A stretch of 64,000 nucleotides of DNA from an uncultured Acidobacteriota bacterium (GTDB lineage Bacteria > Acidobacteriota > Vicinamibacteria > Vicinamibacterales > CAVVIG01). Position 1 is the first letter of the stretch; every line of letters starts with the position of its first letter. A program made the translations under genes and the position numbers. This document shows positions 7,878 to 63,564 of the stretch, piece by piece. The notes below the pieces were generated by a model, which saw only the letters and a list, made by a program, of their open reading frames with translations, was not told the DNA's origin and did no database searches. The DNA is taken from positions 423,886-487,885 of the forward strand of contig CAVSLA010000001.1 in the NCBI GenBank assembly GCA_963728825.1, given 5' to 3'.

Positions 7878-10571
7878 CTACGCGTAGTCCTGCCGCAATG
7901 CCTCCGTTGGTTGAATGCGGGTCGCCCGCCAGGCGGGCAGTCCAACGGCGACGACCGCAACCGCGATGAGCAGCCCGATCGCGGTGACAACCGAGGCGAT
8001 GTCGGTCGGCATGACATCGAACAGCTCGGCCCGCACCAGCCGGGCGACGATCGAATGCCCGGCCGCGCCTGCGATCACGCCGACCGCGAGGACGAGAGAC
8101 GTTTCCCTCGCGAGCATCCAGCCAATACGGACACGGCTTGCACCCAGGGCCATGCGCACGCCAATCTCGCTGGTGCGGCGGGCCACCGCAGCGTTCAGCA
8201 TCCCGTAAAAGCCGACGGCAACGAGCAGCAGCGCCAGCGCACTGAATGTGGTACCCAGTGTGGCCAGCAGGCGCTCCCGGCGAAGACCGTTTTCCAGTTG
8301 CTCCTGAACGGTCCTCATCCGAAGCACGCCGACGTTCGGATGAAGCTGCTCGACGGTTCGGCGCGCGGCCGCAGCCAGCAGTTCGGGATCTCCCGCCGTT
8401 CTCAGAACGAATGTCGTGCCGCGAACATCGCCTTGCGAACGAGGCGCGTAGATCATGTTGTCGGTCGCCCGCTTGAGTCCGCCGTCACGAACGTCCCTGA
8501 CGACGCCGATGATGTGGAAAGGCTGATTCAGCTCAGTGGGCGCGAACGAAACGGTTCGACCGACGACGTCGGCTGCGTTGAAGAAGTGGCGGGCAAAAGA
8601 CTCGTTGACGATCGCCACCCGCTGCGATCCCGTCTGGTCGGTTTCGTCGAAGTCACGCCCCGCCAGCAGGGTCATGCCGACCGTGCGGACGAAGCCCGGC
8701 CCGCCGTACGCGACGCCCGCCGAATCGCGCCGCGGATCGGGCGTGCGGTCGGAGGCCGGCGGCGCGATGTTGAAATAGGTGCCGACCCCGACACCGAGCG
8801 AGCCGTACGAATCGGTGACCGCCTGGACGCCCGGCAGCGCGGACAGCGCTTCGCGCCCTTGTGCGAGGAAGGAGTGAAAACGGGTCTCATCCAGATCCCT
8901 TGTGCCGATGTCCATGGTGACCGTCAGCAGACGGTCCGATCCGAACCCGACGTCGATGCGGCGGAAATTGGTGAGGGTCTGCAGGAAGAGCGCGGCGCTG
9001 CCGACGATGGTAATGGTCAGCGCGACCTGGGCCGCCATCAGGCTTCTGGTCAAGCGCGGCGACCCGTGAGCCGAGATGTTCCGGAGCGCATCCTGCGGGT
9101 TGGTCGCTGACGCACGAAGAACCGGCGCGAACCCCGACAGGAGCGCGGCGCCAATCGCCACCAGCGCCGTGAAGCCGAGCATCCACGCGTCAGGACGGAG
9201 ATCGACGCCGTCGAGGGCGCCGTCGCCAAGCGCGAGGTAATAGCCGGCGGGCGCAAGCCACTGCGCGAGGAGCAGGGCGAGTACCCCGCCCGCAAGAGCG
9301 ATGAGCAGGATCTCGGTGAACAACTGACGCATGAGCCGGAAGCGGCCGGCGCCAAGTGCGAACCGGAGCCCCAGCTCCTTCTGGCGGTTCAGCGCACGCG
9401 CGAGAAACAGCCCGGCAAGATTGGAGCAGGCGATCAGAAGAACCAGAGCCGTGGCGATCATCAATACACGCAGCGTCGGCTGAAGCGATCGGCGCACGCC
9501 GGATGTCGCCCCGGTCGACGCCACCCGCACGTCGACCCTGATGTTCTCGGCATTGAGACCCAGTTTCTGGCGCATCCCGGCCGGGACCGCAGCGATCGCT
9601 GCCTCCGATGCTGCTCGGAATACCGGGGTCAGCCGCTCCGCGGCCCGTTCGGTTGAGACGCCGGGCTGGAGGCGTCCGATGAAGATCAACCACCCGCGAT
9701 TGCCCGCGGTCAGGATGCCCGGCGGATAAAACAGCTCTGCGTCGGTGAGCGGCAGGAAGACGTCGTAGCTCTCGCCGAACGCGAGACCACGAAAGTCCCG
9801 CGGCAACACGCCGGCGATCAAGACGTCGCGGCTGCCGAGCACAAATGACTCGCCAATGACCTCGGGGCGTCCTGCGAAGGCCCGGCGCCAGTAAGCGTGG
9901 CTGAGCACTGCGACGGACGGTGAGCCAGGCCGCTCGTCTGACGCCGCCAGCACCCGTCCGGCGGCGGCCGAGATGCCGAGCACATCGAACAGGTTGCCCG
10001 AGGCCAGCATGGCCGTGATTACTTCGCGGCGCCCGTCGATGACCGCGACGACCCCGCCCGGCGTCGGCGCAACGGCGGCGATACCGGTCAGGCCTTCGTG
10101 TCGGTCGGTCAGCATCTGGAATGCCGGGTACGACTGCAGGCACGTCCGCGAGCCGCCGGTGGCGCCCGGGCCCGACCCGCAATCGATCTGCACGAGCTCG
10201 TAAGGATTCGGCACGGGCAGGGTCTTGACGAGCACCTCGCGGACGACGCTGAACAACGCGGTGTTGACGCCGATGCCCAGTGCCAGCGTCACGACGGCCA
10301 GCGCGGCGAAGGCGGGGGTCCGGCGATACGTCCGTAGCGCGAAGCGGACGTCACCGCGGAAATCGTCCAGCCAGACCGAGCGCGTGGCCGCCCGGACGTC
10401 TTCCCTGATCTGCTGCCGGCCGCCAAATTCGAGTCGAGTGAGCCGTGCGGCTTCGGCGGGAGAGCGTCCCGACGCGATGTGCTGCGCAATCTGCTCGTCG
10501 ATGTGAAACTGCAGTTCCCTGTCGATCTGCTGGTCACGACCGCGCGTGAACAACCGACGCAGGACGCTCAT
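7878..10571 (-). CDS. ADOP-family duplicated FtsX/MacB-like permease (no ATPase partner), copy 1
   Basis: MSVLRRLF..ELQFHIDEQIAQHIASG..RSPAEAARLTRLEFGG leader typical of the PadR-linked class. Two FtsX-type 4-TM modules are separated by large periplasmic domains. The ATG at 10571 overlaps the PadR stop (ATGA); the track's 10715 start is an off-target extension. Confidence 0.85.
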   Translation of the reverse strand: MSVLRRLFTRGRDQQIDRELQFHIDEQIAQHIASGRSPAEAARLTRLEFGGRQQIREDVRAATRSVWLDDFRGDVRFALRTYRRTPAFAALAVVTLALGIGVNTALFSVVREVLVKTLPVPNPYELVQIDCGSGPGATGGSRTCLQSYPAFQMLTDRHEGLTGIAAVAPTPGGVVAVIDGRREVITAMLASGNLFDVLGISAAAGRVLAASDERPGSPSVAVLSHAYWRRAFAGRPEVIGESFVLGSRDVLIAGVLPRDFRGLAFGESYDVFLPLTDAELFYPPGILTAGNRGWLIFIGRLQPGVSTERAAERLTPVFRAASEAAIAAVPAGMRQKLGLNAENIRVDVRVASTGATSGVRRSLQPTLRVLMIATALVLLIACSNLAGLFLARALNRQKELGLRFALGAGRFRLMRQLFTEILLIALAGGVLALLLAQWLAPAGYYLALGDGALDGVDLRPDAWMLGFTALVAIGAALLSGFAPVLRASATNPQDALRNISAHGSPRLTRSLMAAQVALTITIVGSAALFLQTLTNFRRIDVGFGSDRLLTVTMDIGTRDLDETRFHSFLAQGREALSALPGVQAVTDSYGSLGVGVGTYFNIAPPASDRTPDPRRDSAGVAYGGPGFVRTVGMTLLAGRDFDETDQTGSQRVAIVNESFARHFFNAADVVGRTVSFAPTELNQPFHIIGVVRDVRDGGLKRATDNMIYAPRSQGDVRGTTFVLRTAGDPELLAAAARRTVEQLHPNVGVLRMRTVQEQLENGLRRERLLATLGTTFSALALLLVAVGFYGMLNAAVARRTSEIGVRMALGASRVRIGWMLARETSLVLAVGVIAGAAGHSIVARLVRAELFDVMPTDIASVVTAIGLLIAVAVVAVGLPAWRATRIQPTEALRQDYA

Positions 10572-10912
10572 GACTGTTCCTCCGCCGTGCTCAGCACGAG
10601 GCCGATCGCCTGCGCCATTCGTTCCCAGTTCAGCCGTTCGACGTCGAGCTGTTTCCGCCCGGCCCTGGTCAGCGTGTAGAACTTGGCTTCGCGCCCGGTT
10701 TCGGTGTTCTTCCACTCGGCTTTGAGCCAGCCCCGCTCCTCCAGCCGGTGGAGGGCGGGATACAGCGAACCCTGCTGGACCTGCAGTGCCTCGCGTGACA
10801 GCTGTTGCAGACGCTGCGCGATGGCATAGCCGTGGAGCGGACCAACGGCCACCACTTGGAGAATGAGCAGGTCGAGTGTGCCCTGCAGCAGATCAGATCT
10901 TGAAGCGCTCAT
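10568..10912 (-). CDS. PadR-family transcriptional regulator (acidobacterial ADOP-linked type)
   Basis: LLQGTLDLLILQVVAVGPLHGYAIAQRLQ..GSLYPALHRLEERGWLKAEW..REAKFYTLTRAGRKQL winged-helix signature. The track's GTG start is at 10918; the ATG is at 10912. Confidence 0.9.
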   Translation of the reverse strand: MSASRSDLLQGTLDLLILQVVAVGPLHGYAIAQRLQQLSREALQVQQGSLYPALHRLEERGWLKAEWKNTETGREAKFYTLTRAGRKQLDVERLNWERMAQAIGLVLSTAEEQS

Positions 10913-13024: not shown

Positions 13025-14176
13025 CTAAATGCGCAGGCCGAAGAACGGGCGCAGCTTCGTACCGACGGCGTTGCCGGCAAACGCCGCGGCGAACCAGACC
13101 CAGCCATGGACGCTCGACGAGGCGATGCCGCTGAAGTACGCGCCGATGTTGCAGCCGTACGCGATGCGTGCGCCGTAGCCGAGCATCAGACCGCCGACGA
13201 TGGCCGCCACCAGCGATCGAATCGGCACGCGCCAGGACGGCGCGAAGCGTCCCGCCAGCCCGGCGGCGGTCAGCGCGCCCAGCACGATGCCGAAATTCAT
13301 CACCGAGGTGACATCGTCGAATACCGTGGCCTGGAGCTCCGCCGACCGGGCCGCGGTTTGCCAATACGGCCAGCCGGCGACGTCGACGCCGGCGGCGCCG
13401 ACGATCTTCGATCCCCACAGCGCGAACGCCGACGTCACGCCCCACGGCCTGCCGGCGAGCAGGAGTGTCGCGATGTTGACCGCCGCCAGCCCCAATGCGC
13501 CGGCCACGATCGGCCACGGACCGCGCCACATCGACTGGGTCGCAGCCGGTTTCTCGAGCGCACCGTGGCGACGCTGTTCGACCACCGCCGAGACCATCGT
13601 CACCGATCCGAAGAGGATGAAACTGCCAGCCAACGCCGGGCCGAGCCCGAGGGACGCGAGGAGTGTCGTTGGCGCGAGTGACGGCGTGGCTTCCCACATT
13701 GGCATATGGAGGACGCCGACCACCGATCCGGCAATGAACGCCGCGAGCGTCACGATCATCCGCACGCTGCCGCCGCCGGCCGTGTAAAGGGTCCCCGACG
13801 CGCAGCCGCCACCGAGCTGCATGCCGACGCCAAAAATAAACGCGCCACAGATGACCGACAGACCGATCGGAGCCACGGTTCCGCGCACCAGGCGGCCGAA
13901 GACCTGACCGTCGGCCAGCAACGGCAGAAATACGGCACACGTCACGGCCAGCATCAACATCTGCGCGCGCACGCCCCGGCCGCGGCCGTCGGCGATGAGC
14001 GCCCGCCAGGCCGACGTGAAGCCGAACGCCGAATGGTAGAGGACGAGCCCCGCCGCGGCGCCAACCAGAAACAGCGCGCTCTGACGCCACGTGAACGCCA
14101 GCGCTAGATAGAGCGCGCCGGCGGCGATCAGGCCGACCGCAATCGAAGCCGGGCCACGTCTGTTGGGTTGAGGCAA
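13025..14176 (-). CDS. YeeE/YedE-family sulfur-compound (thiosulfate-type) transporter
   Basis: Polytopic membrane protein with the two signature Cys motifs, GGGCASGTLY and AYGCNIGAYFSG. Confidence 0.8.
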   Translation of the reverse strand: MPQPNRRGPASIAVGLIAAGALYLALAFTWRQSALFLVGAAAGLVLYHSAFGFTSAWRALIADGRGRGVRAQMLMLAVTCAVFLPLLADGQVFGRLVRGTVAPIGLSVICGAFIFGVGMQLGGGCASGTLYTAGGGSVRMIVTLAAFIAGSVVGVLHMPMWEATPSLAPTTLLASLGLGPALAGSFILFGSVTMVSAVVEQRRHGALEKPAATQSMWRGPWPIVAGALGLAAVNIATLLLAGRPWGVTSAFALWGSKIVGAAGVDVAGWPYWQTAARSAELQATVFDDVTSVMNFGIVLGALTAAGLAGRFAPSWRVPIRSLVAAIVGGLMLGYGARIAYGCNIGAYFSGIASSSVHGWVWFAAAFAGNAVGTKLRPFFGLRI

Positions 14177-14184
14177 CCGCTACA

Positions 14185-16905: not shown

Positions 16906-19419
16906 CTACCCGGCCAGGGCGATCAGCGGATCGATTCGCGTCGCCCGTCGGGCCGGCAGCGCACACGCGGCGATCGCCACGCCCGCGAGCACAGTGGCCG
17001 CGGCCACCAGCACGAGCGGATCGGTGGCCGAGACGTGGAACAGCTGGCTTTGGAGGCTGCGCCGCAAGGCCAGGGCACCGGCGGCGCCCAGGGCAAAGCC
17101 AACGGCAATCAGCATCAGGCCCTCGCGGAGGATGAGATCGAAGATGCTGCGACCGCTGCTGCCGAGCGCGAGCCGGATGCCAATCTCCCGCGTGCGCTGT
17201 GTCACGACGTAGGCGAGGACGCCGTAGATGCCAATCGCCGACAACAGCAGCGCGATCGCGCCGAACGCCAATGACAGGACGACCGGCGATCGCCGGTTGA
17301 CGAGCGAGCGATCGACACGCTCGGTCATCGTCAACATGTCGAAGAGGGCCAGCTCGCGATCGAGCGCGGCGATCGCCTGGCGCACCGAGCCGCCGAGCGC
17401 CGCCGGATCGCCAGCGGTTTTGATGGCGTAGTTGAGCGCGAAGCCCTGCGCCTGCGGCGGCGGCATGTTCTGCAGAACCGGGAAGTAGACCGCTCCCACG
17501 AACTCGTCTTCCTGCGTGAGGCTCTGCAGCTTCATCTCGCGAATCACCCCGACGACGTCGATGAACACCGTCCGCTCGGTGATGGCCGTGAGATTGCTCG
17601 GATCGGTCGGCAGATACATCCGGCGGCCGATCGGGCTCTGACCCGGCCAGAACCGTCGGGCGAGTCGATCGTCGACGATGACCACGCGCGGCTGCGGAGC
17701 GCCGAACGCGGATGGCGCGGCGTCAGGCGGAGCCACGTCCCGTTCGTCGAAGAACCGGCCTGACATCAGCTGGACGCCCATCGCCTCGAAGAATCCGGGC
17801 GAGATACTCGACTGCGTCGGAGCGATCGCGGCCTCACCCGGCCGCATCTGGTAGCCTTCGGCGAAAATCACGCTGTTGTTTCCGCTGCCGCCGAGCGGCA
17901 TCATGCTCGTCGTGCCGGCCGCCTCGACGCCGGGCAACGCGCGAACGCGCTGCAGCGACTCGTTCAAGAACCCGATCATTGCGGTGTTTTCGCGGAACCT
18001 GGCTCGGGGCAGGACGGCCGATGCGGTCAACACGCGGTCGGCGGTGAAGCCGGGATCGACCGCCAGCACCTGCCGAAAGCTGGAGAACAACAGTCCCGCC
18101 CCAGCCAGCAGCACGAAGGCAAACGCCACTTGAGTGACGACGAGGGTGCGTCGCAGCAACCGCGTGCCGCGGCCGCTCGTTCCCGTCCGTCCCTCCTCGC
18201 GCAGCATCGTCGTCACGGTCGACGGCAGCACTGCCGCCGTCGGGATCAGCCCCAGCACGAAACCGATGGCCGCCCCGGCCGCCATCGTGACGGCAATCAC
18301 GACACCGTCGAGTCGAATCTCGGCGCCGCGCGGCAGTTCCTGGATGTTCAGCGCGCCGAGCAGGCGAAGCGCCGCCCAGCCGACCGCGAGGCCGACCGCC
18401 GACGACGCGAGCGCGAGCATCAGGCCTTCGGTGATCAGTTGGCGCGCGATCCGGCTTCGACGGGCGCCGAGCGCGACGCGCGTCGCCAGCTCCTTCAAGC
18501 GCGCGCGCGATCGCACCAGCACCAGATTGGCGACGTTCACACAACCGATCAACAGGACGAACAGCGCGCCGCCCCACATCAGATAGAGGGTCGTCCGCAC
18601 ATCGCGCACGAGGTCGTCCTGCAGCGGGCTGACAATCGTGTGGAAGCCGGCGTTGACGACCAGCTCCTTGAACTGGGGGAACCGATCGAGATTGGCGGTG
18701 TTCAGCCGATCGATCTCCGACTGCGCCTGCTGGAAGCTGGCGCCGGCTTTCAGTCGTCCGATCTGCTGGAGGTTGTTGCTGTGCCGTGACTGGTCCGACT
18801 TCTGGACGGGAGTAAACGCCAGCGCACGCCACAACATGACGTCGGGCCGGAGGTAGACGAAGCTCTGTGGCATGACGCCGACCACGGTGTAGGTCTGGCC
18901 GTCGATCGGCACGTCGCGGCCGACGACGGTCAGATCGCCGCCGAATGCCGACTGCCACAAGCCGTAACTCAGCACGATCTTCCGCTGATTGCCGGGCTCA
19001 CCCTCGTCGTCGGTGAAGGTCCGGCCGTGCAGCGGCTGAACCGCCAGCACTCGAAAGAACGACGGCGTGACGTTCATCGCACGAACGCGCGTCGGTGTGC
19101 CGTCCTGGTCGATATTGACGCTGGCGTTGTTGTAGACCGCCTGCTCCGCAAACGCCGTCGTCTCACGCAGCCGATCGAAGTAGTCGGGCACGCCCACCGC
19201 CCGCAGGTTTGCGGCCCCCGCTTTGGGGTAGGCGTTACCGATGATCGCGATCCGGTCGGACTCGGACATCGGCAGCGGCCGCAGCAGCACGTTGTTGACG
19301 ACCGCGAACAGCGCCACGTTCGCGCCAATGCACAGCGCCAGCGTCACGGCGACGGTGGCGCTGAAGCTGCGGTCCTTCCACAGCAGCCGCAACCCTACTT
19401 TGACGTCATGACTGAGCAT
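16906..19419 (-). CDS. ADOP-family duplicated FtsX/MacB-like permease, copy 2 (no PadR, no leader domain)
   Basis: [41 protein letters not shown], with a duplicated FtsX architecture and a C-terminal [13 protein letters not shown]. Confidence 0.85.
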
Positions 19420-19443
19420 GTCAGTGCCTGCGGATCCGTACGT

Positions 19444-19493
19444 AGGTCGGGCCTCTCAGGCCCGACCTCTCCAAAGGTCAGGCCCGACCTCTC
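19444..19493. repeat. Family C hairpin element plus a 15-nt direct repeat of its right arm
   Basis: AGGTCGGGCCT ctc AGGCCCGACCT (11-bp perfect stem, 19444-19468). aggcccgacctctcc is then repeated at 19479-19493. Confidence 0.8.
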
Positions 19494-35846: not shown

Positions 35847-36407
35847 CTATGCGATCAGAACGGCCAGGCCGATCAGGCCCAGTCCGCTGATGATCAGCCA
35901 CGGCGCAAGGGCGCCGGCAGGCCCGCTCGAGATTTCGCCTTCCCCTTGAAGGCGATGCGCCACAGTCGCCTGGGCGGAAAACGCCACGCCGGCTGCCGCA
36001 AGCAGCAGCACCCAGCCGACGCCGAGCGCGGCGCGTGCCGCAGGCACGCCATTGAGGAGCTCCGTGGAAAAGAACAACGTTGCCAGCCAACTGGCGACGG
36101 CGACGCCCGCCACCAGCCTGAGGCGACCGATCTCCCGGTCGCCGGCCTGACGCCGCAGCTCGAGTTGCAGCGCCCGCTCGGCTCTGGCCCGTTCGCCCTC
36201 GAGCTGATCCCGTTCCAGTTCCAGGCGCCGCGAGTCGCGGTCGAATGCTTCCTTGAGCGCCGCGACCACCACGCCGGCGAGCCTCGCTTCGAGGGGACCG
36301 GTGGCGCCGGGCGCGAGCTGCTGCGGTTCATCCCGACGCGTCACTCGACGCGCGATGTCGGTCATGCCGAGCGCCGCGTCCATCAGACGCAGCCAGGGAA
36401 TTGCCAT
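35847..36407 (-). CDS. Membrane protein with a central coiled-coil and C-terminal TM helices, unknown function
   Basis: MAIPWLRLMDAALG..RRLELERDQLEGERARAERALQLELRRQ..LVAGVAVASWLATLFF..VGWVLLLAAAGVAF..LIISGLGLIGLAVLIA. Its ATG overlaps the M61 stop by 1 nt (TGATG). Confidence 0.5.
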   Translation of the reverse strand: MAIPWLRLMDAALGMTDIARRVTRRDEPQQLAPGATGPLEARLAGVVVAALKEAFDRDSRRLELERDQLEGERARAERALQLELRRQAGDREIGRLRLVAGVAVASWLATLFFSTELLNGVPAARAALGVGWVLLLAAAGVAFSAQATVAHRLQGEGEISSGPAGALAPWLIISGLGLIGLAVLIA

Positions 36408-38251
36408 CAGTTCACCCACCGTTCTCGAAATGCGCGCTGCGCCGCGCTCAACGATTGACCGCTCTGCTCGATTGGCACGATCTGGATGGCCGGATCCTCG
36501 GCAAGCGTCAGAGCGGTCGTCCGCTGCCGACCGGTGCGGTCGGTGAAGACAATCGAAATCCTGTCGCCAGGACGTCGCCGCGCCAGAACCGCGGCGATCT
36601 CGCTCGCGGAGCGGACCGCCGTTCCGTCGAGCTGCCGGATTTCGTCGTCCACATCCAGCTCCGCGTTGTAGATCGGCGATGCAAAGGCCGGCGGCGAGCC
36701 AAGGCGAACTCCACCGCCGCGGGGCTCGAGCTCCACGTCACCGAGCCACGCGCGACCGTTCGCCGGCCGCCGCAGCACGAAGCCGGCCCGCAGCAGCAGG
36801 ACCGCGTAGTCGGCGACCTCGCGACCTCGGATGAATCGCGCGAAGAAGTCACGCGCGAATGCAGCGTCGCCCGCCACTTCCGCCAGGCGCGCTTCGGCGT
36901 CTTCAATGGTGTACGGGCGGTCGACAAACCCGGGACGCGCGCCGCCCGGCTTGCCGTGCGCCCGCCACATGGCGCGCATGTAGTCGTCCAGCGTCACGCC
37001 GCCGTCCGAGCGCTGCCGGAGCGTCAAGTCGAGGGCCAGCGCAATCGCGCCGCCGAAGTCATAGTAGGAAATGAACGTCTGAGACCAGTTCGTCCGATCC
37101 AGCGGCCGGCCCAGGTCGGTGAACGAAGCCATCTGACTCATCTCCTCGGCAGACCGCACGGATCGTGCCGGATTCGAGGCAATGCTCGCCACCAGCTGGC
37201 CGAGTGCGTCGGCCAGGCCGGCATGATTCAGCAGCCCGGCGCGGGCCATCGTCAGCGGGCCGAAGTATTCCGTGAACCCTTCAGCCAGCCACAGCTCGCC
37301 TGACATGTTGGGTCCCTCGAAGTCGAATGGCTCGAGCGATCGTGGCCGGATGCGTTCGACGTTCCATCCGTGGAAGAACTCGTGCGCGACGCCGCGCAGC
37401 AGCGTGCCGCGACCGCTGCCCAGCGACATCGACGAGGTCAACACGCTGCTGTTGCGGTGCTCCATGCCGTCTTCGGCCGCGTACGGCAGATAGTCGGCCA
37501 GGAACGTGTAATGCCCCGAGTCGTAGACGGGGAACTCACCGAAGACATCGCGCTGCGCACGGACGATTCGCTCGACGTCCCGCACGAAGCCATCGACCTC
37601 GTTGGCCGAACCGGCGTGATGGACGGCGACCCGGATCGGTTGCCGGTCGACCGAGAATTCGCGAAGCGTCGGCAGCCCGAACTCCGCCGGCGAATCCATG
37701 AGGTACTGCAGATTAGGGGCGGTGAAGTCGAACGGCGTTCCGGCGGGATGGAGCTGCGTCACGACTCGCCAGTCACGACCCGGCGGTGGCTCGAACCGCA
37801 CCGCGATCGGTCGGTCATCGAAGCCTTGGGCCCACATCACGGCGGCCGGCATGTTGATGTGGGCGTGAGTCGGATCGACCGCCAGATAGGTGCCATCAAG
37901 CCGATCGCCGAATACCTTGTACCGAATCGTCGCGCTGCCGCCATGGTCGCGCACGACCCACCCGTGGGGATCCGACCGCACCGCAGTCAGCTCCCGTTGG
38001 CTGGATACCGCGCGGACGTCATACACGTTCTTCGCGAAGTCGTGTTGAGAGTAGCGGCCTGGAGAGGACCGACTCATGCGAAGCTCGAGCGGCCGATCGC
38101 TCAGGTCGGTCAGCCGGATCTCAACCTGCATCCATCGGTGCTGGGGCTCAGGAAACGTCAAGACGTACTGGATGAGAGGCTGCGCCCGCGGCGCCTCGAG
38201 CCACAGCGCGACCAGCGCCGCCACGAAGAGACCGATGAAACGGATCCGCAT
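36407..38251 (-). CDS. M61 glycyl aminopeptidase-family metallopeptidase with C-terminal PDZ domain, secreted
   Basis: Signal peptide MRIRFIGLFVAALVALWLEAPRAQ. HEFFHGWNVERIRP zinc motif. PDZ-like C-terminus (NAELDVDDEIRQLDG). Confidence 0.85.
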   Translation of the reverse strand: MRIRFIGLFVAALVALWLEAPRAQPLIQYVLTFPEPQHRWMQVEIRLTDLSDRPLELRMSRSSPGRYSQHDFAKNVYDVRAVSSQRELTAVRSDPHGWVVRDHGGSATIRYKVFGDRLDGTYLAVDPTHAHINMPAAVMWAQGFDDRPIAVRFEPPPGRDWRVVTQLHPAGTPFDFTAPNLQYLMDSPAEFGLPTLREFSVDRQPIRVAVHHAGSANEVDGFVRDVERIVRAQRDVFGEFPVYDSGHYTFLADYLPYAAEDGMEHRNSSVLTSSMSLGSGRGTLLRGVAHEFFHGWNVERIRPRSLEPFDFEGPNMSGELWLAEGFTEYFGPLTMARAGLLNHAGLADALGQLVASIASNPARSVRSAEEMSQMASFTDLGRPLDRTNWSQTFISYYDFGGAIALALDLTLRQRSDGGVTLDDYMRAMWRAHGKPGGARPGFVDRPYTIEDAEARLAEVAGDAAFARDFFARFIRGREVADYAVLLLRAGFVLRRPANGRAWLGDVELEPRGGGVRLGSPPAFASPIYNAELDVDDEIRQLDGTAVRSASEIAAVLARRRPGDRISIVFTDRTGRQRTTALTLAEDPAIQIVPIEQSGQSLSAAQRAFRERWVN

Positions 38252-38269: not shown

Positions 38270-38947
38270 TCACGCGTCCCGATTGGTGGCGTCCGTCCCG
38301 CCCAGGGCCTGGTCGATGAACGCATCCTCGGGCACGGCGCCGAGGACCTCGGTGGTCTCGTTCACCACCGTCTTGGGCACGGCCGAAACACGGTACCGCC
38401 GCGCCAGATCGGGAAACTCCGTCGCCTCGACCGCAAATGCCGTGACCTGTGGGCTTGCGAATGCCATCTCATGCGCCAGGCTGACCGCCCGCGGACAATG
38501 CGGTCAAGTCGGTGTGGTGAAGACGTGCATGACCATCGGCTTGTCGAGGGCGGTCAGACGCGCGCGATTCTGGTCGGACAGATCGGGCGGCCGCCCGCCG
38601 CCGGCCAGCAGCACAGCCCTGATCAACGAGATGAACTCGTAGCCGGCGGGCGTGCCCAAGAAACGGATGCGCGAATCTTTCAGGTCCTCGCCCTCGAGGA
38701 ACGTCACCGCCACGGCTGGTACTCGATCGACACCGTATTGTGCGGCCTTGTCCGGTTCGAGGACGAAGTTCACTTCCTCGATGGAGATCTTGTCTGACAG
38801 GGGTGGCAGTTCGTCCAGCACCTGACGGGTCAGCAGGCACGTCTCGCACCCGAGCGTCTGCGTGAAGAACAGCAGCCGCACCGGGCGCGCCATCTTCGCG
38901 AAATCCTCTCGAAGGCGCGCCTGATCGGCAGCCGATATCAAAGCCAT
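38270..38947 (-). CDS. PfPDO-like (glutaredoxin-like, two thioredoxin folds) protein disulfide oxidoreductase with an in-frame UGA at the first Cys of the second CxxC motif; candidate selenoprotein
   Basis: Track ORFs 38504..38947 and 38270..38467 share one frame, separated by TGA (38504-38506) and 12 open codons. The joined product is MALISAADQARLREDFAKMARPVRLLFF..GCETC..FLGTPAGYEF..VMHVFTTPT-[UGA]-PHCPRAVSLAHEMAFASP..ATEFPDLARRYRVSAVPKTVVN. This follows the Pyrococcus PDO layout (..VFVTPTCPYCPLAV..), recalled from memory. Confidence 0.7.
38474..38493 (-). other. SECIS-like stem-loop downstream of the in-frame UGA
   Basis: The RNA CGCGGGC-GGUCA-GCCUGGCG forms 7 pairs (one G-U), with one bulged G and a 5-nt apical loop starting GGU. 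The loop starts 20 nt after the U of UGA. Folded by eye only. Confidence 0.4.
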
Positions 38948-38977: not shown

Positions 38978-39475
38978 TCACCGTGTACACGAGCTGCCGG
39001 TCGGAGCTACCGAACGCACCCGCAGTGAAGAGATCTCGAGACGGGTCTGCTGTTCGGTGGCCACCTTCGGGGTAGGACCCGCGCCGGCGGCCGGTGCCTG
39101 CCCGGCGGATGTGCCAGTCGACTCGCTGCCGCTTGTCCCGACGCCGGGCGACGCCGCGACCGCTGGCGCAGCCTCACGAACAATCGCCACCTCAGGCGTG
39201 TCCGCCATACCGCTCACACGTACCTGACGGCCGACGTGCTGACGGAACACGCTGGCGTCGCCGATCAAGCGGTAGCTCTCGGTCGACGGCGCAGCGATCG
39301 TTGTTCCGGTCTCGGCCCGGTCGAGCTCGGTCAAGACGAACTCGTCGCCAGTGCCGGTCAGACATCCGGTCACCTCGACTTCAGATTTCATCTCCGCAGG
39401 ATCCTGATTGCCGGCACCACAGGCCACTACCGACGCGGCGGCGCAAAGGATTGCCGCATGAATCGCGTGTTTCAT
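38978..39475 (-). CDS. Lipoprotein, unknown function
   Basis: MKHAIHAAILCAAASVVACG lipobox, GGAGG before the ATG at 39475, and a low-complexity A/G/S/T/P C-terminal half. The track start at 39766 is an extension. Confidence 0.55.
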   Translation of the reverse strand: MKHAIHAAILCAAASVVACGAGNQDPAEMKSEVEVTGCLTGTGDEFVLTELDRAETGTTIAAPSTESYRLIGDASVFRQHVGRQVRVSGMADTPEVAIVREAAPAVAASPGVGTSGSESTGTSAGQAPAAGAGPTPKVATEQQTRLEISSLRVRSVAPTGSSCTR

Positions 39476-39552: not shown

Positions 39553-39990
39553 TTACTTGAAGAGATCGTCGAAGGCCTGGCGCGCGCTGGTCGGCCCAGG
39601 TGTGCTGGTTTGCCGTTCGACGGTGGTGCGCGGTGCAAAGTACGCGCAGAGGTTGCGCTCGTCCTTGGGCGTCACTCGCGCCGTCAGCGCCTGCTGGGTA
39701 CATTCCCAACGTGCGCTGGTGTCGAACGATGCGCAGTTGATGCAGCTGTGGACCGCAACGCCACACCGGGCGCAGCGGCTGTCGCTTTCGACGGGGACGG
39801 CCAGCTTGTTCCCGCAGCGGGCGCAGCGGAAGACTTCATGCGCGCCCATGAGGTTGGGCGTTCGCGGTCCCGAAGCGTCCTGCAGTTGACGCCCGGGCGC
39901 CCGCGGTTCCGGTGCGGGCTTGGGGCGCTTCGGCCCCTGTGCCCTCGGCTCGTCCTGATATCCGCGCTGGCGGTACTTGCGGTCGGACAT
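39553..39990 (-). CDS. Zinc-ribbon protein with a basic disordered N-terminus, unknown function
   Basis: MSDRKYRQRGYQDEPR.. followed by CARCGNK..CARCG..CINC..C Cys pairs. I prefer the ATG at 39990 over the track's 40098. Confidence 0.5.
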   Translation of the reverse strand: MSDRKYRQRGYQDEPRAQGPKRPKPAPEPRAPGRQLQDASGPRTPNLMGAHEVFRCARCGNKLAVPVESDSRCARCGVAVHSCINCASFDTSARWECTQQALTARVTPKDERNLCAYFAPRTTVERQTSTPGPTSARQAFDDLFK

Positions 39991-40225: not shown

Positions 40226-40872
40226 ATGGCCCAGATCTTTCACCGCAGCACCAACACGATTTCCCGGGTCAGCATCTTCGGCACGCTCTTCATCGTCGCC
40301 GGGCTGCTCTGGCTGGTTGCCCAGATCCATCGCTCGTCGTGGCTCACCGATGCGCTGGTCGCCCGCGAGCAGCCGATTCAGTTCAGTCACGAGCGCCACG
40401 TCGGCGGCAACGCGATCGATTGCCGCTACTGCCACACGTCGGTCGAGGTCTCGCCATTCGCCGGCATTCCGCCGACCAAGACCTGCCTGAACTGCCACGG
40501 TGAGATTTTCGCCAACAGTCCGTTTCTGCTGCCGGTGCGAACCAGCTTCGAGTCGAACCGGCCGATCGAATGGACCCGCGTCCACGATCTGCCCGACTTC
40601 GTGCACTTCGATCACAGCATTCACGTGAGCAAGGGCATGGGGTGCACGACCTGCCATGGTCCGATCGATCGGATGGGGCTGACCTGGCAGGACAAATCGC
40701 TGCAGATGGAGTGGTGCCTGGACTGCCACCGCAATCCCGAACGCTACGTGCGACCGAAAAGCGAAGTCTTTTCCGTCGCCTATCGTCCGCCGCCCGATCA
40801 GATGGCGGTCGGACGGCGTCTGGTCGCCGAGTACGGCATTCAGAAACTACAGAGCTGCTCGACGTGTCATCA

Positions 40873-40876
<4 letters not shown>
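40226..40876 (+). CDS. actA: Alternative Complex III pentaheme cytochrome c subunit
   Basis: N-terminal TM anchor and five CxxCH motifs (CRYCH, CLNCH, CTTCH, CLDCH, CSTCH). First gene of the act cluster. Confidence 0.9.
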
Positions 40877-45374
<4,498 letters not shown>

Positions 45375-47778: not shown

Positions 47779-48197
47779 GCGACGAACGCCAGCACCATCT
47801 CGAGTCGATCGATCAGCCGTCGGTGCATCACGAAGAAACCGACATCAACATCCGCGCTGTCTTCGGCTTCGGCGGCGGTCTGCTGGTCACGACCATCGTC
47901 GTGATGCTGGCGATGTGGGGGCTGTTTCGCTACCTCGACGGCCGGGCGGAGCGGCTCGGTGGTTCGCTCCGGCCGCTCGCGACGAATGAAGTGCGGCTGC
48001 CGCCTGAACCGCGACTGCAGATCACGCCGCGCGCCGACGCCGCCGAGTTCCGTGCGCAGGAAGACGCGCTGCTGAACGGTTACTCATGGGTCAATCGGGA
48101 AACAGGCACGGTCAGGATCCCGATCGCTGAGGCGATGAAGATGACGTTACAGCGAGGGTTGCCCGCGCGCGAGCAGCCGGCGGGTCAGCAGAAATGA
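47775..48197 (+). CDS. Small single-TM protein encoded between act and cox genes (possible ActG-like accessory subunit)
   Basis: MSDERQHH..INIRAVFGFGGGLLVTTIVVMLAMWGLF (TM) ..RLPPEPRLQ..LLNGYSWVNRETGTVRIPIAEAM. ATGA overlaps on both sides. Confidence 0.55.
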   Translation: MSDERQHHLESIDQPSVHHEETDINIRAVFGFGGGLLVTTIVVMLAMWGLFRYLDGRAERLGGSLRPLATNEVRLPPEPRLQITPRADAAEFRAQEDALLNGYSWVNRETGTVRIPIAEAMKMTLQRGLPAREQPAGQQK

Positions 48198-49135
48198 CGC
48201 GACGTTTTGTGTCCTTGGTGTCCTTGGTGTCCTTTGTGCTCCTGACATCTCCGCTCGCCGCCCAGATGAGCGGTGCCCCCAGCGCCGGATACCGCCTCGA
48301 GCCTGGAGTGGCGGCATCGGTCGTCCCGCAACCGCTGCGCGAGATCGGATTCGATCAGCGGCTCGACGAACGCGTGCCGCTGGACGTCGAGTTCAGAGAC
48401 GAGCTCGGGCAAACCGTACGGCTCGGTCAGTACTTCGGGCAGAAACCGGTCGTGCTCGCCTTCGTGTACTACGACTGTCCGATGCTCTGCACGATGGTGC
48501 TCAGCTCGATTACCAGCACGCTGGGCGTCCTGTCGCTCGATGCCGGCACGGACTTCGAGCTCGTGATGGTGAGCTTCGACCCGCGGGAAACACCGGAGCT
48601 GGCGGCGCGGAAAAAAGCGGAATATCTCGGGCGCTACGATCGACCTGGTGCCGCGGGCGGGTGGCATTTCCTCACCGGCAACCAGGCCTCGATCAGCCGG
48701 CTCACCGCAGCCGCCGGGTTCCGCTACACCTGGGACGAGGACACGAAACAGTTCGCGCATCCAGCCGGCATCGTGGTCCTCACGCCTGACGGCCGACTGG
48801 CCCGCTATCTGTTCGGCCTCGAGTTCGGTCCGCGAGACCTGCGCCTGGCACTGATCGAAGCCTCCGGTGGCCGCATCGGCACGGCGGTCGACACGGCGCT
48901 GCTCTATTGCTACCACTACGATCCGATGACCGGCCGCTACGGCCTGGTCGTGATGCGCGTGCTGCGCATCGCCGGCGCCGCCACGGTGCTGGCCCTCGGC
49001 ACATTCATTTTCGTCATGGTCAGGCGAGAACGCACCCGGCACCTACGCACCCTGCACCCGGCACCCGGCACCCCGCACCCGGCACCCGGCACCCGGCACC
49101 AGCCCCCGGCCCCCGCTCCCGACGTGAGGCAGTGA
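48194..49135 (+). CDS. sco1: SCO1/SenC copper chaperone for CuA assembly, with a C-terminal TM helix and a repeat-derived tail
   Basis: PVVLAFVYYDCPMLCTMV (CxxxC) and a downstream FAHPAG His. N-terminal VSLVSLVSFVLL and C-terminal HPAPGTPHPAPGTRH are both encoded by word repeats. Confidence 0.85.
   Translation: MTRRFVSLVSLVSFVLLTSPLAAQMSGAPSAGYRLEPGVAASVVPQPLREIGFDQRLDERVPLDVEFRDELGQTVRLGQYFGQKPVVLAFVYYDCPMLCTMVLSSITSTLGVLSLDAGTDFELVMVSFDPRETPELAARKKAEYLGRYDRPGAAGGWHFLTGNQASISRLTAAAGFRYTWDEDTKQFAHPAGIVVLTPDGRLARYLFGLEFGPRDLRLALIEASGGRIGTAVDTALLYCYHYDPMTGRYGLVVMRVLRIAGAATVLALGTFIFVMVRRERTRHLRTLHPAPGTPHPAPGTRHQPPAPAPDVRQ
48207..48244. repeat. 9-bp word repeat (GTCCTTGGT-type), second locus
   Basis: ttgtgtccttggtgtccttggtgtcctttgtgctcc inside the first codons of sco1. 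Same words as 3831-3869. Confidence 0.8.
49031..49100. repeat. 7-bp word repeat (GCACCCG-type), reverse complement of the 10978-11029 array
   Basis: gcacccggcacctacgcaccctgcacccggcacccggcaccccgcacccggcacccggcacccggcacc, lying in the last codons of sco1. Confidence 0.85.
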
Positions 49136-49136
49136 A

Positions 49137-50153
49137 ATGTGGCCCGGTACGCCGCTGTTTCCCGACACCGCCTCGACCATCGCGCCGCGCGTGGACGCGT
49201 TGTATTTCTTCCTGGTCGGCGTCGCCGCCTTCTTCTCGCTGCTGATTGCCGGCCTGATCATCTACTACGCGATCAAATTTCACCGCCGCGCCCCTGACAG
49301 CGTCGGCGCGCGCATCTCGGGCGGCCTGGTCCTCGAGATCACCTGGAGCGTCATCCCGCTGGCGATCGTGATGGTCATCTTCGTCTGGGGAGCCAGTGTG
49401 TTTTTTACGATGGCCCGTCCCCCGGCCGATACGCTGAACATCTATGTGGTCGGGAAACAGTGGATGTGGAAGTTCCAGCACCTGAACGGCGCCCGGGAGA
49501 TCAACGAGCTGCACGTGCCGATCGGCCAGCCGGTCAAGCTGATCATGACCTCGGAAGACGTCATCCACGATCTGTTCTTCCCGGCGTTCAGAGTGAAAGC
49601 CGACGTCATTCCCGGCCGCTACACCCAGATCTGGTTCGAAGCCACCCGGCCCGGCACCTATCACTTGTTCTGCGCCGAATACTGCGGCACCCGGCACTCC
49701 GGGATGATCGGCCAGGTCGTCGTGATGGAGCCGAGCGAATTCCAGACGTGGCTGAGCAGCGGTCAGGCCGAGGGGTCGCTGGCGTCCGCCGGCGGCAAGC
49801 TGTTTCGAGACCTGGCGTGCAACACCTGCCATCGCAGCGACGCCCAGGGGCGCGGTCCGGTCCTGGACGGGCTGTTTGGCAAGACGGTCACGCTCCAGAG
49901 CGGCGAGAACGTCGTCGTGGACGAAGCGTATATCCGCGAGTCGATCGTCAATCCGAACGAGAAGCTGACGGCGGGCTTTCAGCCGATCATGCCGGCCTAT
50001 CAGGGACAGGTGAACGAGGAAGGCCTGCTCGAGCTGATCGAATACGTCCGCGCGCTCGGCACCGGCGCGGCCGCGCCGGAGCTGCGGCCCGACGCCGGTG
50101 GTCCGCGGCCGGGTGAAAACACGCCGTCCCGGGGAGGAGACGTCCCCCGTTAA
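49137..50153 (+). CDS. ctaC: Cytochrome c oxidase subunit II with fused C-terminal cytochrome c (caa3 type)
   Basis: CuA site [20 protein letters not shown] and a C-terminal CNTCH heme c motif. Confidence 0.9.
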
Positions 50154-50157
50154 CCGT

Positions 50158-51772
<1,615 letters not shown>

Positions 51773-51783
<11 letters not shown>

Positions 51784-52504
51784 CACCGCCGCGGGCGCGA
51801 CCCGGCCCGGACACCACCGCCTCGACGACAGCGGCCCTGGGCACCGAAGCCTTGGCGGAGGTGGCCATCGGGCGCTGGCGCATCACTTCGACAACCTCGC
51901 CCAGCAGCAGGAAGCAGCCACGCTGGGCATGTGGGTCTTCCTGGTCACCGAGGTACTGTTCTTCGGCGGGCTGTTCGCCGCCTACTCGCTCTACCGCGCC
52001 TGGTATCCGGACGCCTTTGCCGCGGCGAGTCATACGCTGGACATCACGCTCGGCACGGTGAACACCGCCGTCCTGATCACCAGCAGCTTGACGATGGCGC
52101 TGGCGGTCCACGCGGCGCAGCTCGGCGAGCGGCATCGGCTGATGCTGTTTCTGATCGCGACGATGATTCTCGGCGGCGTGTTCCTGGGCATCAAAGGCGT
52201 CGAATACGCCCACAAGTTCACCGAGCATCACGTGCCCGGTCCCTCGTTTCACTTCGAGGAAGAGCACCTGTCAGCCCAGGCGCAGCTGTTTTTCTCGCTC
52301 TATTTCGTGATGACCGGCCTCCACGCGCTGCACATGGTGATCGGGCTCGGGATCATGGCGTGGATGCTGTGGTGGGCGTGGAACGGCACGATCGGACGTG
52401 ACTACTACAGTCCGATCGAAGTCAGCGGCCTCTACTGGCACTTCGTCGACATCGTCTGGATCTTCCTGTTCCCGCTCTTATATCTCATCGGAAGACACGG
52501 ATGA
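51773..52504 (+). CDS. ctaE: Cytochrome c oxidase subunit III
   Basis: [67 protein letters not shown]. Confidence 0.85.
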
Positions 52505-60807: not shown

Positions 60808-60910
60808 GGGCCGCAGAGTACATCAGTCGCGGCAGGACGGCGATTCCCATTTTCACTGTTTCACGGTTCTTGACCGGCTGAACGCCTTACCCTAGGCTTA
60901 TCTAGGCAAG

Positions 60911-60934
60911 TGCCGGGCCGGAGAGGCCCGACCT
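60911..60934. repeat. Family C hairpin element, inverted orientation
   Basis: The reverse complement, aggtcgggcctctccggcccggca, matches the 19444 copy at about 20 of 24 positions. Stem CGGGCC/GGCCCG. Confidence 0.65.
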
Positions 60935-60975
60935 GCGCACGTCCCTTCAACCAATCGGTCTGGAGCAAAAGTGAG

Positions 60976-63564
60976 ATGGGCTGGATCCGTCGCCTGCGTG
61001 GGACGCTGCTGCGGGAGGACTCGACGTTCGACGAGGAGGCGCAGTTTCACCTGGAGTGCCGCGCTGAGGATCTCGTTGAAACGGGTCTGACCCGCGAGCG
61101 GGCACAGCGCGAGGCACTGCGACAATTTGGAGGCGTGATGGTGGCCAGAACGCGTACTCGCGACGCCGACGTGATCGTGTGGCTCGACGGCTTTGTGCAC
61201 GACCTGCGTCACGCCCTCCGCAGCCTGTGGCGGGTGCCTGGCCTGGTCGGTGTGAGCGTTCTGTCGCTCGGCCTGGGCATCGGCGTCAACCTGGCGCTCT
61301 ACGCCGCGATCAGCACGATCTTCCTCCACCGGCCGACGATGGAAGCTCCGGAGCGGGTGCTGGGGGTGGAAATCGGCGGTGCGCGACAGCTCTCGTACCC
61401 GAATTACCGCGACCTCCGCGACAGCGAGCTGTTCGCCGACACGATGGCGTTCAGGGCCGGCTCGATGACGCGCCGGTCGGACGATGTGCTCGAGAATCTC
61501 GGCGTACTGGTGGTGAGCGCGAACTTCTTCGATGGGCTGGGGATCCGCGCCCGCATCGGTCGCACGTTCTCGAACGGGGAAGCGGCGGCGGAGCGGGCGC
61601 CGCGCCTGATCGTCCTGACCCACCGCTATTGGCATGCCCGCTTCGCCGGCGACCCCGCGGCGGTCGGGCGGACGATGACCCTCAACGGCGAACCGTTCGA
61701 GATCGTCGGCGTGCTCGACGAAGACTTCCGCGCCATCACCGGGTTTGCCGCACCGGCCGCCTACGTGCCGATCAGCGCGCTCGCGCTCCCGACGCTCGAC
61801 GATCGCGGCAGCCCGAGCCTGAGCGTGGTCGCCAGGCTGCGGGACGGCGGCACCTCGCAGCAGGCGCAAGCGGCGGTCACGGCGTGGGGACGGAATCTGG
61901 AGCGCAGCTTCCCTGAACGGAACGAGGGTCTGGGACGGCCCGCGGCAGTTGTTCCGGCGAGGTCGTTGCAGTTCCGCGGCACGCCGTTCGGCTTCGTTTT
62001 CTTCCCGATCGTGCTGGCGGTGCTCTTCGCGATCCTGCTGCTGCTCGGCGCGGTCAACGTCGCGGGACTGCTGCTCGCCCGCGCCGCTGCGCGCCGGCAG
62101 GAACTGGCCATCCGTGCCGCCCTGGGCGCTGGCCGGTGGCGCGTCGTCCAGTCGCTGCTGGTCGAAAGCCTGGTGCTGAGTCTCCTGGGGGCCGGCGTTG
62201 GGGTGCTGGTGACCATCGTCCTGACGCGCGTGCCGCTGCCGGTGTCGAGCACTTTTCTCCAGCAGCTGATCGTTCCGGATCTGCGACTGCTCGGCCCGGC
62301 GCTGCTGCTGGTGGCGGTGACCACCCTGGTGTGCGGAGCGATGCCGGCACTTCGCGCGACTCGCGGACGCGTCGTCCACACGCTTCGCCAGGAGGAGGCG
62401 AGCCACACCGGCCGGATGACTCTGCGCAGTGCGCTGGTCGTCAGCCAGGTGGCGATGTCATTCGTCCTGCTGGTGGTCGCGTCGCTGTGCCTGCGCAGCC
62501 AGCTGCGGGTACTGACGTTTCATCCGGGTTTCGATCTCGACCAGAGCGCGGTCGCACGCATTACGCTCGAACCGGGTCGCGACACTGCAGACGGCCGCAT
62601 CCGGATGGCCGAGCGGCTCGTCGAGCGGGTCGAACAGCTGCCTGGCGTGCGGGCGGCCGCCGCGACGTCGGTCGTCCCGCTGGGCGGCGACGCCCTGGTG
62701 GCGAGCTTTCATCCGGCAGGGAGAAGCGACATCCCTGGAACGCGACCGACCGTCGCCAGCGTCGGCCCGCGCTATTTCGAGACGCTGGGCATCCCGCTGG
62801 CCGGTGGGCGCGACTTTCTCGACACCGATCGCGCCGGCACGCCGGTCGTCACGATCGTCAATCAGACCTTCGCGAACACCTATTTTCCGGGCCGCAACCC
62901 GCTCGGCGAGCAGGTGCTGATCGGCGGCGAGCCGCCGGCCGAGATCGTCGGAGTCGTCGCCGACAGCAAGGTCGACACGATCGGCGAGGCGCCCAAGTCG
63001 GTCCTCTACTACCCGTTTGCCCAGCGGTCACGCCGACTGACGGTGGTGATCCGCACGGAAGGACCGCCGGCCGCCGCGCTGTCGGCCATCCGTCGGGCGA
63101 TGTCCGAAGTCGATCCGACCCTGGCGGTCGGCGTCAGCACGCTTCGAGAGGCGGCCGGCACCGAGCTGGCGATGCGGCAGACCGGCACGGTGATGGTCGG
63201 CGCCGTTGGCGTCGTCGGCCTGCTGCTGACCGCAATCGGCTTGTACGGCGTCGTGGCATATCTGGTGGCGTCGAGAACGATCGAAATGGGAATCCGGATG
63301 GCGCTCGGCGCGTCGCCGCGCGGTCTACGCTGGGTGGTGATGCGGGGCGCCGCGGTGCTGGTCGTTTTCGGGGTCGCAGCGGGCACCGCCGCCGCGCTGA
63401 TCGTGACGCCAGCGCTCGCGACCTTCCTCGCCGGTCTGAGCCCGCTCGACCCGATTGCGTATGCCGGCGGCGCGACCGTGCTCATCCTGGTCGGCCTCGC
63501 GGCGAGCTATCTGCCGGCCCGCCGGGTGACGCGCGTCGACCCGATGATTGCCTTGCGGCGCTGA
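60976..63564 (+). CDS. ADOP-family duplicated FtsX/MacB-like permease, copy 3 (leader domain present, no PadR)
   Basis: MGWIRRLRGTLLREDSTFDEEAQFHLECRAEDLVETGLTRERAQREALRQFGG leader, then a duplicated FtsX architecture, ending RRVTRVDPMIALRR. I prefer the ATG at 60976 over the track's 60910. Confidence 0.85.
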   Translation: MGWIRRLRGTLLREDSTFDEEAQFHLECRAEDLVETGLTRERAQREALRQFGGVMVARTRTRDADVIVWLDGFVHDLRHALRSLWRVPGLVGVSVLSLGLGIGVNLALYAAISTIFLHRPTMEAPERVLGVEIGGARQLSYPNYRDLRDSELFADTMAFRAGSMTRRSDDVLENLGVLVVSANFFDGLGIRARIGRTFSNGEAAAERAPRLIVLTHRYWHARFAGDPAAVGRTMTLNGEPFEIVGVLDEDFRAITGFAAPAAYVPISALALPTLDDRGSPSLSVVARLRDGGTSQQAQAAVTAWGRNLERSFPERNEGLGRPAAVVPARSLQFRGTPFGFVFFPIVLAVLFAILLLLGAVNVAGLLLARAAARRQELAIRAALGAGRWRVVQSLLVESLVLSLLGAGVGVLVTIVLTRVPLPVSSTFLQQLIVPDLRLLGPALLLVAVTTLVCGAMPALRATRGRVVHTLRQEEASHTGRMTLRSALVVSQVAMSFVLLVVASLCLRSQLRVLTFHPGFDLDQSAVARITLEPGRDTADGRIRMAERLVERVEQLPGVRAAAATSVVPLGGDALVASFHPAGRSDIPGTRPTVASVGPRYFETLGIPLAGGRDFLDTDRAGTPVVTIVNQTFANTYFPGRNPLGEQVLIGGEPPAEIVGVVADSKVDTIGEAPKSVLYYPFAQRSRRLTVVIRTEGPPAAALSAIRRAMSEVDPTLAVGVSTLREAAGTELAMRQTGTVMVGAVGVVGLLLTAIGLYGVVAYLVASRTIEMGIRMALGASPRGLRWVVMRGAAVLVVFGVAAGTAAALIVTPALATFLAGLSPLDPIAYAGGATVLILVGLAASYLPARRVTRVDPMIALRR

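Follow-up and report, generated by a model that had tools for sequence, protein, structure and literature searches.

The minus-strand segment 38947..38270 of the window (the whole stretch of DNA analysed, 64 kb in length) is very probably one gene, whose sequence predicts a 225-residue oxidoreductase of the P. furiosus protein disulfide oxidoreductase (PfPDO) / AhpF N-terminal domain family in which the UGA at codon 148 is recoded to selenocysteine (Sec). Frame inspection found this gene, referred to here as the PDO gene, to consist of 678 nt and 226 codons in a single frame. The sole break in this frame is the TGA at 38506..38504, located in the context HVFTTPT-[TGA]-PHCPRAVSLAHEMAF, and no second lesion occurs among the 77 codons on its 3' side. 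Gene callers would split the gene into an ORF of 147 aa (38504..38947) and an ORF of 65 aa (38270..38467, with an ATG start at 38467), the twelve codons between the UGA and this ATG being PHCPRAVSLAHE. A preliminary description of this DNA had proposed that the two ORFs share one frame, separated only by the TGA and twelve open codons, and that the first unit retains GCETC; the 226-codon frame confirms the former, and the latter was identified as Cys34 and Cys37 at 38848..38837. The features of the gene are as follows:

38270..38947, minus strand: predicted complete selenoprotein gene, PDO / AhpF N-terminal domain homologue of 225 aa with two thioredoxin folds and Sec at residue 148 (single frame, TIGR02187.2, Thioredoxin_3 and 1A8L alignment)
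38504..38506, minus strand: UGA codon 148, predicted to be read as Sec, at the first, nucleophilic position of U-P-H-C in the C-terminal thioredoxin fold (alignment to CPYC of PfPDO; TGC or TGT in 17 acidobacterial homologues)
38495..38506, minus strand: U-P-H-C active-site motif, residues 148-151, with Cys151 as resolving cysteine (1A8L alignment; PHCPRAV invariant in Sec forms)
38837..38848, minus strand: C-E-T-C motif (within GCETC), Cys34 and Cys37, in the N-terminal thioredoxin fold (aligns with CQYC of PfPDO; CxxC kept in the homologues inspected)

UGA is used as a normal stop elsewhere, and it also terminates the PDO gene itself and many of its homologues, showing the genetic code to be standard. 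When the whole window was scanned for TGA triplets with coding-like composition on both flanks, that of the PDO gene was the only match inside a gene; two other matches were ordinary gene boundaries, in frame by chance, and the scan yielded no further in-frame TGA candidates in the 64 kb. The in-frame TGA of the PDO gene is far beyond chance. The two ORFs could instead represent separate products, namely a single-fold protein of 147 aa, terminated at the UGA, and a second protein of 65 aa initiated from the ATG at 38467. Both ORFs are callable, the second possesses an ATG start, and termination at the UGA when selenium is scarce would give a 147-aa fragment still carrying CETC. This is nevertheless extremely improbable, as the twelve intervening codons form the most conserved stretch of the protein and include the resolving cysteine, the 65-aa fragment would be without the active site and half of a thioredoxin fold, and the methionine at the start of the second ORF is an internal conserved residue also in homologues with Cys at the UGA position (Cys forms).

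Protein searches with the full-length PDO product were performed with U entered as C. The product matches NCBIfam model TIGR02187.2 ("PDO_seleno_TRX", an equivalog for protein disulfide oxidoreductase) with 240.7 bits, above the cut-off of 185 set for this model. Residues 7-214 align with model positions 3-206 of 209, and there is also a partial match to NCBIfam TIGR03140. Pfam analysis placed Thioredoxin_3, Thioredoxin and Glutaredoxin on residues 135-214 (Thioredoxin_3 on 138-214). The best match among solved structures was PfPDO (1A8L, E=2.9e-36), aligned over the full length, as was the homologue from P. horikoshii (1J08). In both alignments CETC falls on CQYC and U-PHC on CPYC, with the UGA at the first Cys of CPYC. 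Lower-ranked structure matches were PDOs of Aquifex and Aeropyrum (2AYT, 2YWM and 2HLS being listed among the PDOs) and AhpF N-terminal domains. At the level of sequence, the 1A8L and 1J08 alignments together with Pfam thus reveal two tandem thioredoxin folds with a redox CxxC, here UxxC, in the second, in agreement with the initial identification as a PfPDO-like disulfide oxidoreductase with two thioredoxin folds. Alignment of U with the first Cys of CPxC, which had been suggested as a check, was observed both against CPYC of PfPDO and against 17 Cys homologues.

In common with PfPDO and the other solved PDOs (1J08, 2AYT, 2YWM and 2HLS), the window protein possesses two thioredoxin folds with both CxxC motifs in register over the full length. 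It differs in that those proteins are all Cys enzymes, whereas Sec would occupy the first active-site position here, and in that the middle residues of the motif are PH rather than the PY of PfPDO; furthermore, the PDOs characterised so far are from hyperthermophiles. Tandem thioredoxin folds with a redox CxxC in the second are also shared with the N-terminal domain of AhpF (1ZYN, 1HYU and 4O5Q; E=1e-9 to 1e-11), but the window protein is stand-alone, without a fused FAD/NAD(P)H reductase domain. The first fold of the AhpF N-terminal domain is not known to carry a CxxC, whereas that of the window protein keeps one. Pfam annotation of the ORFs of the 64-kb window identified no AhpC gene near the PDO gene.

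The PDO family is catalogued as a UxxC selenoprotein, and its description is credited in the catalogues to the 2004 prokaryotic selenoproteome study of Kryukov & Gladyshev (PMC9312934, PMC13188914). A representative of the known selenoprotein family is ABB15282.1 of Carboxydothermus hydrogenoformans. Members were recorded in this species and in Symbiobacterium thermophilum in a 2006 survey (PMC1794560), and a 2026 review also places the family in Asgard archaea (PMC13188914). The 2006 survey further lists selenoproteins for Acidobacteria (three families, four proteins; PMC1794560), a record that supports the Sec reading at phylum level only. The name of TIGR02187.2 itself refers to the selenoprotein form. 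The question raised in the preliminary description, whether a Sec form of the PDO family has been described, can be answered: it has been since 2004, and it is listed in current catalogues. The Sec form is already known, so that the locus is an annotation fix and not a discovery, and it adds no new selenoprotein family, recoding mechanism or SECIS type. The window protein resembles the known family in passing the same NCBIfam model above cut-off, in the placement of Sec at the start of the UxxC motif of the second thioredoxin fold, in the coexistence of Cys homologues, and in a SECIS-type hairpin directly downstream, inside the coding sequence. The difference lies in the host: two thermophiles were the known carriers in 2006, whereas here most copies in mesophilic soil Vicinamibacteria are Sec forms, with aerobic-respiration genes beside them.

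Homologous loci were compared in two samples, one of 43 loci from genomes (one genome per species, nearly all labelled Acidobacteriota or Vicinamibacteria) and one of 80 loci from metagenomes that are mostly of soil origin, to judge by their names. At the codon corresponding to 38506..38504, TGA is present in 34/43 of the genome loci and 71/80 of the metagenome loci; all others have TGC or TGT. Overall, this codon is TGA in 106 sequences (105 besides the window) and TGC/TGT in 17. TGA is found in every one of the homologues closest to the window protein (78-82% identity); full-length Cys forms exist at up to 78% identity to it, and a Cys form frequently has a Sec form as its nearest neighbour. 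The in-frame TGA thus lies on a conserved Cys with both flanks conserved, FTTPT on one side and PHCPRAVSLAHEMAF on the other, PHCPRAV being invariant in the Sec forms. The proposal that a stop aligned with a redox Cys represents a Sec/Cys signature is upheld by this recurrence among relatives, and the signature excludes a private nonsense mutation.

Beyond the UGA, the Sec forms have an open frame of a further 68-85 codons, which ends roughly where the Cys forms end. The lone exception among the 106 is locus L036 (3443-3560), from a long-read MAG, in which the frame is lost approximately 18 codons after the UGA; the loss reflects either an indel in the assembly or genuine decay of the copy. 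Comparison of the window with eight TGA-carrying relatives gave dN/dS values of 0.04-0.18 over the 60 codons after the UGA (dS ~0.9-1.5), and selection on these codons is tighter than on the 30 codons preceding it. Downstream of the UGA, the sequence evolves like translated protein and is under strong purifying selection. Independently truncated copies in relatives, which had been named as a sign of a pseudogene, were not seen: downstream codons are intact, with the dN/dS values given above. A nonsense pseudogene or a sequencing error, in which a Cys codon (TGC or TGT) became TGA by a single change and left the gene dead or mis-assembled, would require one base only; the window copy moreover has the weakest, uncompensated variant of the hairpin stem described below, and its downstream RNA is almost identical to that of a Cys form (locus L111). 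Such an origin is very unlikely when set against the occurrence of this TGA in 105 independent assemblies (among them every relative at 78-82% identity), the 77 downstream codons without a second lesion, a dN/dS after the TGA of 0.04-0.13 versus the nearest relatives, and the codons CGG, GCG, GUC and AGC of the window, a signature of the Sec forms that Cys forms rarely show.

A hairpin resembling a bacterial SECIS element (bSECIS) was identified just downstream of the UGA:

38474..38493, minus strand: SECIS-type hairpin in the coding sequence, nt 14-33 counted from the U of the UGA, with a 7-bp stem, one bulged G and the apical loop GGUCA (38486..38482) (bSECIS constraints, frozen synonymous sites and correlated changes)

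The hairpin had been proposed at this position with a 7-bp stem, a bulged G and a GGU loop, and it was recovered as such, the GGUCA loop comprising nt 21-25 and beginning at a spacing of 17 nt after the UGA. The energies calculated for this hairpin range from -9.5 to -10.0 kcal/mol according to the register. Published bSECIS constraints are an apical loop of 3-9 nt with G in the first two loop positions, an upper stem of 4-16 bp, a distance of 16-37 nt from the UGA and an energy of <= -7.5 kcal/mol (PMC13188914). The window hairpin lies within all four (5-nt loop, 7-bp stem, 17-nt spacing, -9.5 kcal/mol), and 105/106 Sec forms pass a re-implemented bSECIS model. The fit to bacterial SECIS geometry suggested in the preliminary description therefore holds, although 32% of the 1677 TGA triplets of the window, which is DNA of 66% GC, pass the re-implemented model too.

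A bSECIS pass was rejected as strong evidence on account of this background and of the 13/17 Cys forms that also pass. Stability was likewise rejected as evidence for a SECIS, the Sec forms showing no difference from the Cys forms (-11.5 vs -11.3 kcal/mol). A hairpin at least as stable as that of the PDO gene follows 19% of the TGAs in the window, the local fold around the UGA is unremarkable compared with shuffles (z=0.43), and the SECIS-type hairpin is not the minimum-free-energy fold. The G-U of the loop corresponds to the first two bases of an invariant Val codon, by which it is forced, and is not independent evidence. The hairpin alone is weak evidence for Sec. A search with an Infernal SECIS-type model had also been proposed; Rfam gave no SECIS match at the gathering threshold in the whole window, and with E up to 10 the region 38400-38560 returned only chance matches, to one snoRNA and one miRNA model. 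A missing Rfam match does not count against the SECIS call, as bacterial SECIS elements are too diverse.

The real support for the hairpin comes from the freezing of synonymous sites and from correlated substitutions, not from stability. RNAalifold consensus folding and column-wise pair counting for both candidate helices (the second is described below) showed no compensatory columns, because variants shift the register; codon-level contingency tests were used in place of column-wise covariation. Mean synonymous codon entropy at codons +4 to +9 is 0.47, compared with 1.20 at 28 other four-fold or six-fold degenerate codons in the same 35 Sec sequences (Mann-Whitney p=3.5e-4), while the value for +4 to +9 in Cys forms is 0.99. 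Arg+5 is encoded by CGG in 101/106 Sec forms vs 3/17 Cys forms and Leu+9 by CUC in 100/106 vs 6/17, these being counts across related sequences with kinship ignored. CCC at Pro+4 is seen only in the presence of CUG at Leu+9 (4/4 vs 1/102, p=1e-6), a change which converts the pairs G15-C32/C16-G31/G17-C30 into C15-G31/C16-G30/G17-U29. CGA at Arg+5 is confined to sequences with a pair between nt 18 and U29 (4/10 vs 0/96, p=4e-5) and is accompanied by a non-AGC codon at +8. Both correlated changes (+4/+9 and +5/+8) keep the stem of the hairpin intact, and the RNA just downstream of the UGA is constrained beyond the requirement of the protein.

Among the 106 Sec forms, the window is the only one with CUG at Leu+9 (38478..38480, minus strand) but without the compensating CCC at Pro+4. 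Owing to this combination, its stem is among the weakest of the Sec forms, yet it remains within the bSECIS model. The downstream RNA of the Cys-form relative L111 is nearly the same as that of the window and looks like a fossil SECIS left by a recent switch from Sec to Cys.

The window hairpin can be compared with the SECIS of E. coli fdhF, in which the G-U of the loop is at nt 23-24. Like the latter, it is located immediately 3' of the UGA within the coding sequence, has a single bulged nucleotide and fits the consensus bSECIS; its apical loop begins with GGUC, with G-U at nt 22-23. It differs in its shorter stem and in the position of the bulge, which is on the 3' side, whereas fdhF has U17 on the 5' side.

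A second structure, mutually exclusive with the SECIS-type hairpin and more stable than it, pairs the UGA itself:

38482..38506, minus strand: competing helix UGACCGC/GCGGUCA, nt 1-25, including the UGA (folding energy -11.8 kcal/mol)

This helix is the minimum-energy fold (-11.8 kcal/mol) and is retained in ~85% of the Sec forms. It does not conform to the SECIS model, as its loop, situated 8 nt from the UGA, lacks a G at the first two positions. Among the 34 distinct Sec sequences of alignment A1, pair 2-24 of this helix is broken in 6 and pair 5-21 in 7, and nucleotide 30 lies outside the helix; for these reasons the SECIS-type hairpin is the better supported of the two. It is doubtful, if conceivable, that the helix is a conserved alternative conformer which tunes Sec insertion against termination (for example according to selenium supply or ribosome unwinding) or, more modestly, that an aerobic soil clade of global abundance uses a Sec-dependent PDO as its default thiol-disulfide oxidoreductase. 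If the conformer proposal were true, the locus would be a regulated recoding site and not a plain SECIS.

The machinery for Sec insertion was sought in the window and in related loci. No tRNA, tRNA-Sec included, was found in the 64-kb window, and neither tblastn with approximate E. coli queries nor Pfam annotation of 39 ORFs identified SelA, SelB or SelD homologues there. The statement that selA, selB, selC and selD are missing from the window is thus substantiated by tRNA search, tblastn and Pfam annotation; their absence from the window says nothing on the rest of the genome. Similarly, selA, selB, selD and tRNA-Sec were not found in ~650 kb of 123 related loci, a negative that is only indicative given the approximate tblastn queries. 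A literature search for Sec use in Vicinamibacteria returned nothing relevant. With no Sec machinery in the window or the related loci, and with dN/dS showing translation past the UGA irrespective of which residue is inserted, readthrough or reassignment of the UGA to a standard amino acid (Trp, Cys or Gly) could be considered in place of Sec. The likelihood of this is minimal: UGA terminates other genes and the PDO gene, so that the code is standard, the site is the catalytic Cys of CxxC with Cys as the sole alternative seen there, the downstream RNA is constrained as expected of a SelB-binding hairpin, and the family is a catalogued selenoprotein.

For the preferred reading, Sec at codon 148, the following mechanism is proposed. 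SelB with Sec-tRNA(Sec) would bind the hairpin through its GGUCA loop 17 nt after the UGA and would deliver Sec to the ribosome at codon 148 in competition with release factor 2. In the mature protein, the selenolate of Sec148, as the exposed attacking residue of U-P-H-C, is predicted to attack a substrate disulfide, giving a selenenylsulfide. Cys151 would resolve this mixed selenenylsulfide, and the oxidised U-C pair may then be re-reduced by an NAD(P)H-dependent partner of thioredoxin-reductase type. Cys-type PDOs and the AhpF N-terminal domain work by the same cycle of attack, resolution and re-reduction. No gene for a thioredoxin-reductase-type partner was identified in the 64-kb window.

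The main value of the locus is in annotation, as ~86% of PDO relatives in soil Acidobacteriota (Vicinamibacteria) would be split likewise. Because gene callers split the Sec forms, the full-length enzyme is under-represented in protein catalogues. The Sec form, and not the Cys form, would be the common state (~86%) of PDO in the abundant and largely uncultured soil Vicinamibacteria, and a Sec majority form implies that the lineage needs selenium and a working Sec-insertion system.

Several other genes of the window were noted:

36407..38251, minus strand: M61 glycyl-aminopeptidase-family gene (Peptidase_M61_N and Peptidase_M61, Pfam)
38978..39475, minus strand: lipoprotein-like ORF (MKHAIHAAILCAAASVVACG...) between the zinc-ribbon gene and the PDO gene (no Pfam match)
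39553..39990, minus strand: Cys-rich, zinc-ribbon-like protein of 145 aa (MSDRKYRQRGYQ..., several CxxC pairs), syntenic neighbour upstream of the PDO gene (no Pfam match)
13025..14179, minus strand: PF04143 Sulf_transp (YedE/YeeE) gene (E=5.6e-64)
40226..45374, plus strand: alternative complex III-like cluster, comprising a multihaem cytochrome c, an 1130-aa Fe-S/molybdopterin-type subunit and an NrfD-type membrane subunit
48131..52504, plus strand: SCO1, followed by aa3-type cytochrome oxidase subunits II, I and III
7878..10715 (minus strand), 16906..19455 (minus strand) and 60874..63564 (plus strand): three large MacB/FtsX-type permease paralogues (MacB_PCD and FtsX domains)

The M61 gene starts 18 nt after the stop codon of the PDO gene, with which it is probably co-transcribed. 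Its location downstream of PDO in 56 related loci points to a conserved operon that combines a redox protein with a peptidase. A homologue of the zinc-ribbon-like protein was identified in 103/123 related loci, directly upstream and on the same strand in nearly all of those with inspected coordinates; judging by this synteny, the protein could be a functional partner or substrate of PDO. The lipoprotein-like ORF at 38978..39475 has a counterpart in only one related locus (L048). Members of the YedE/YeeE family are linked to sulfur or selenium uptake, and the Sulf_transp gene at 13025..14179 may be relevant to selenium supply. The alternative complex III-like and aa3-type oxidase clusters point to the host being an aerobic respirer. 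Expansions of MacB/FtsX permeases are typical of Acidobacteriota, the phylum of the source organism, which is a member of the soil lineage Vicinamibacteria.
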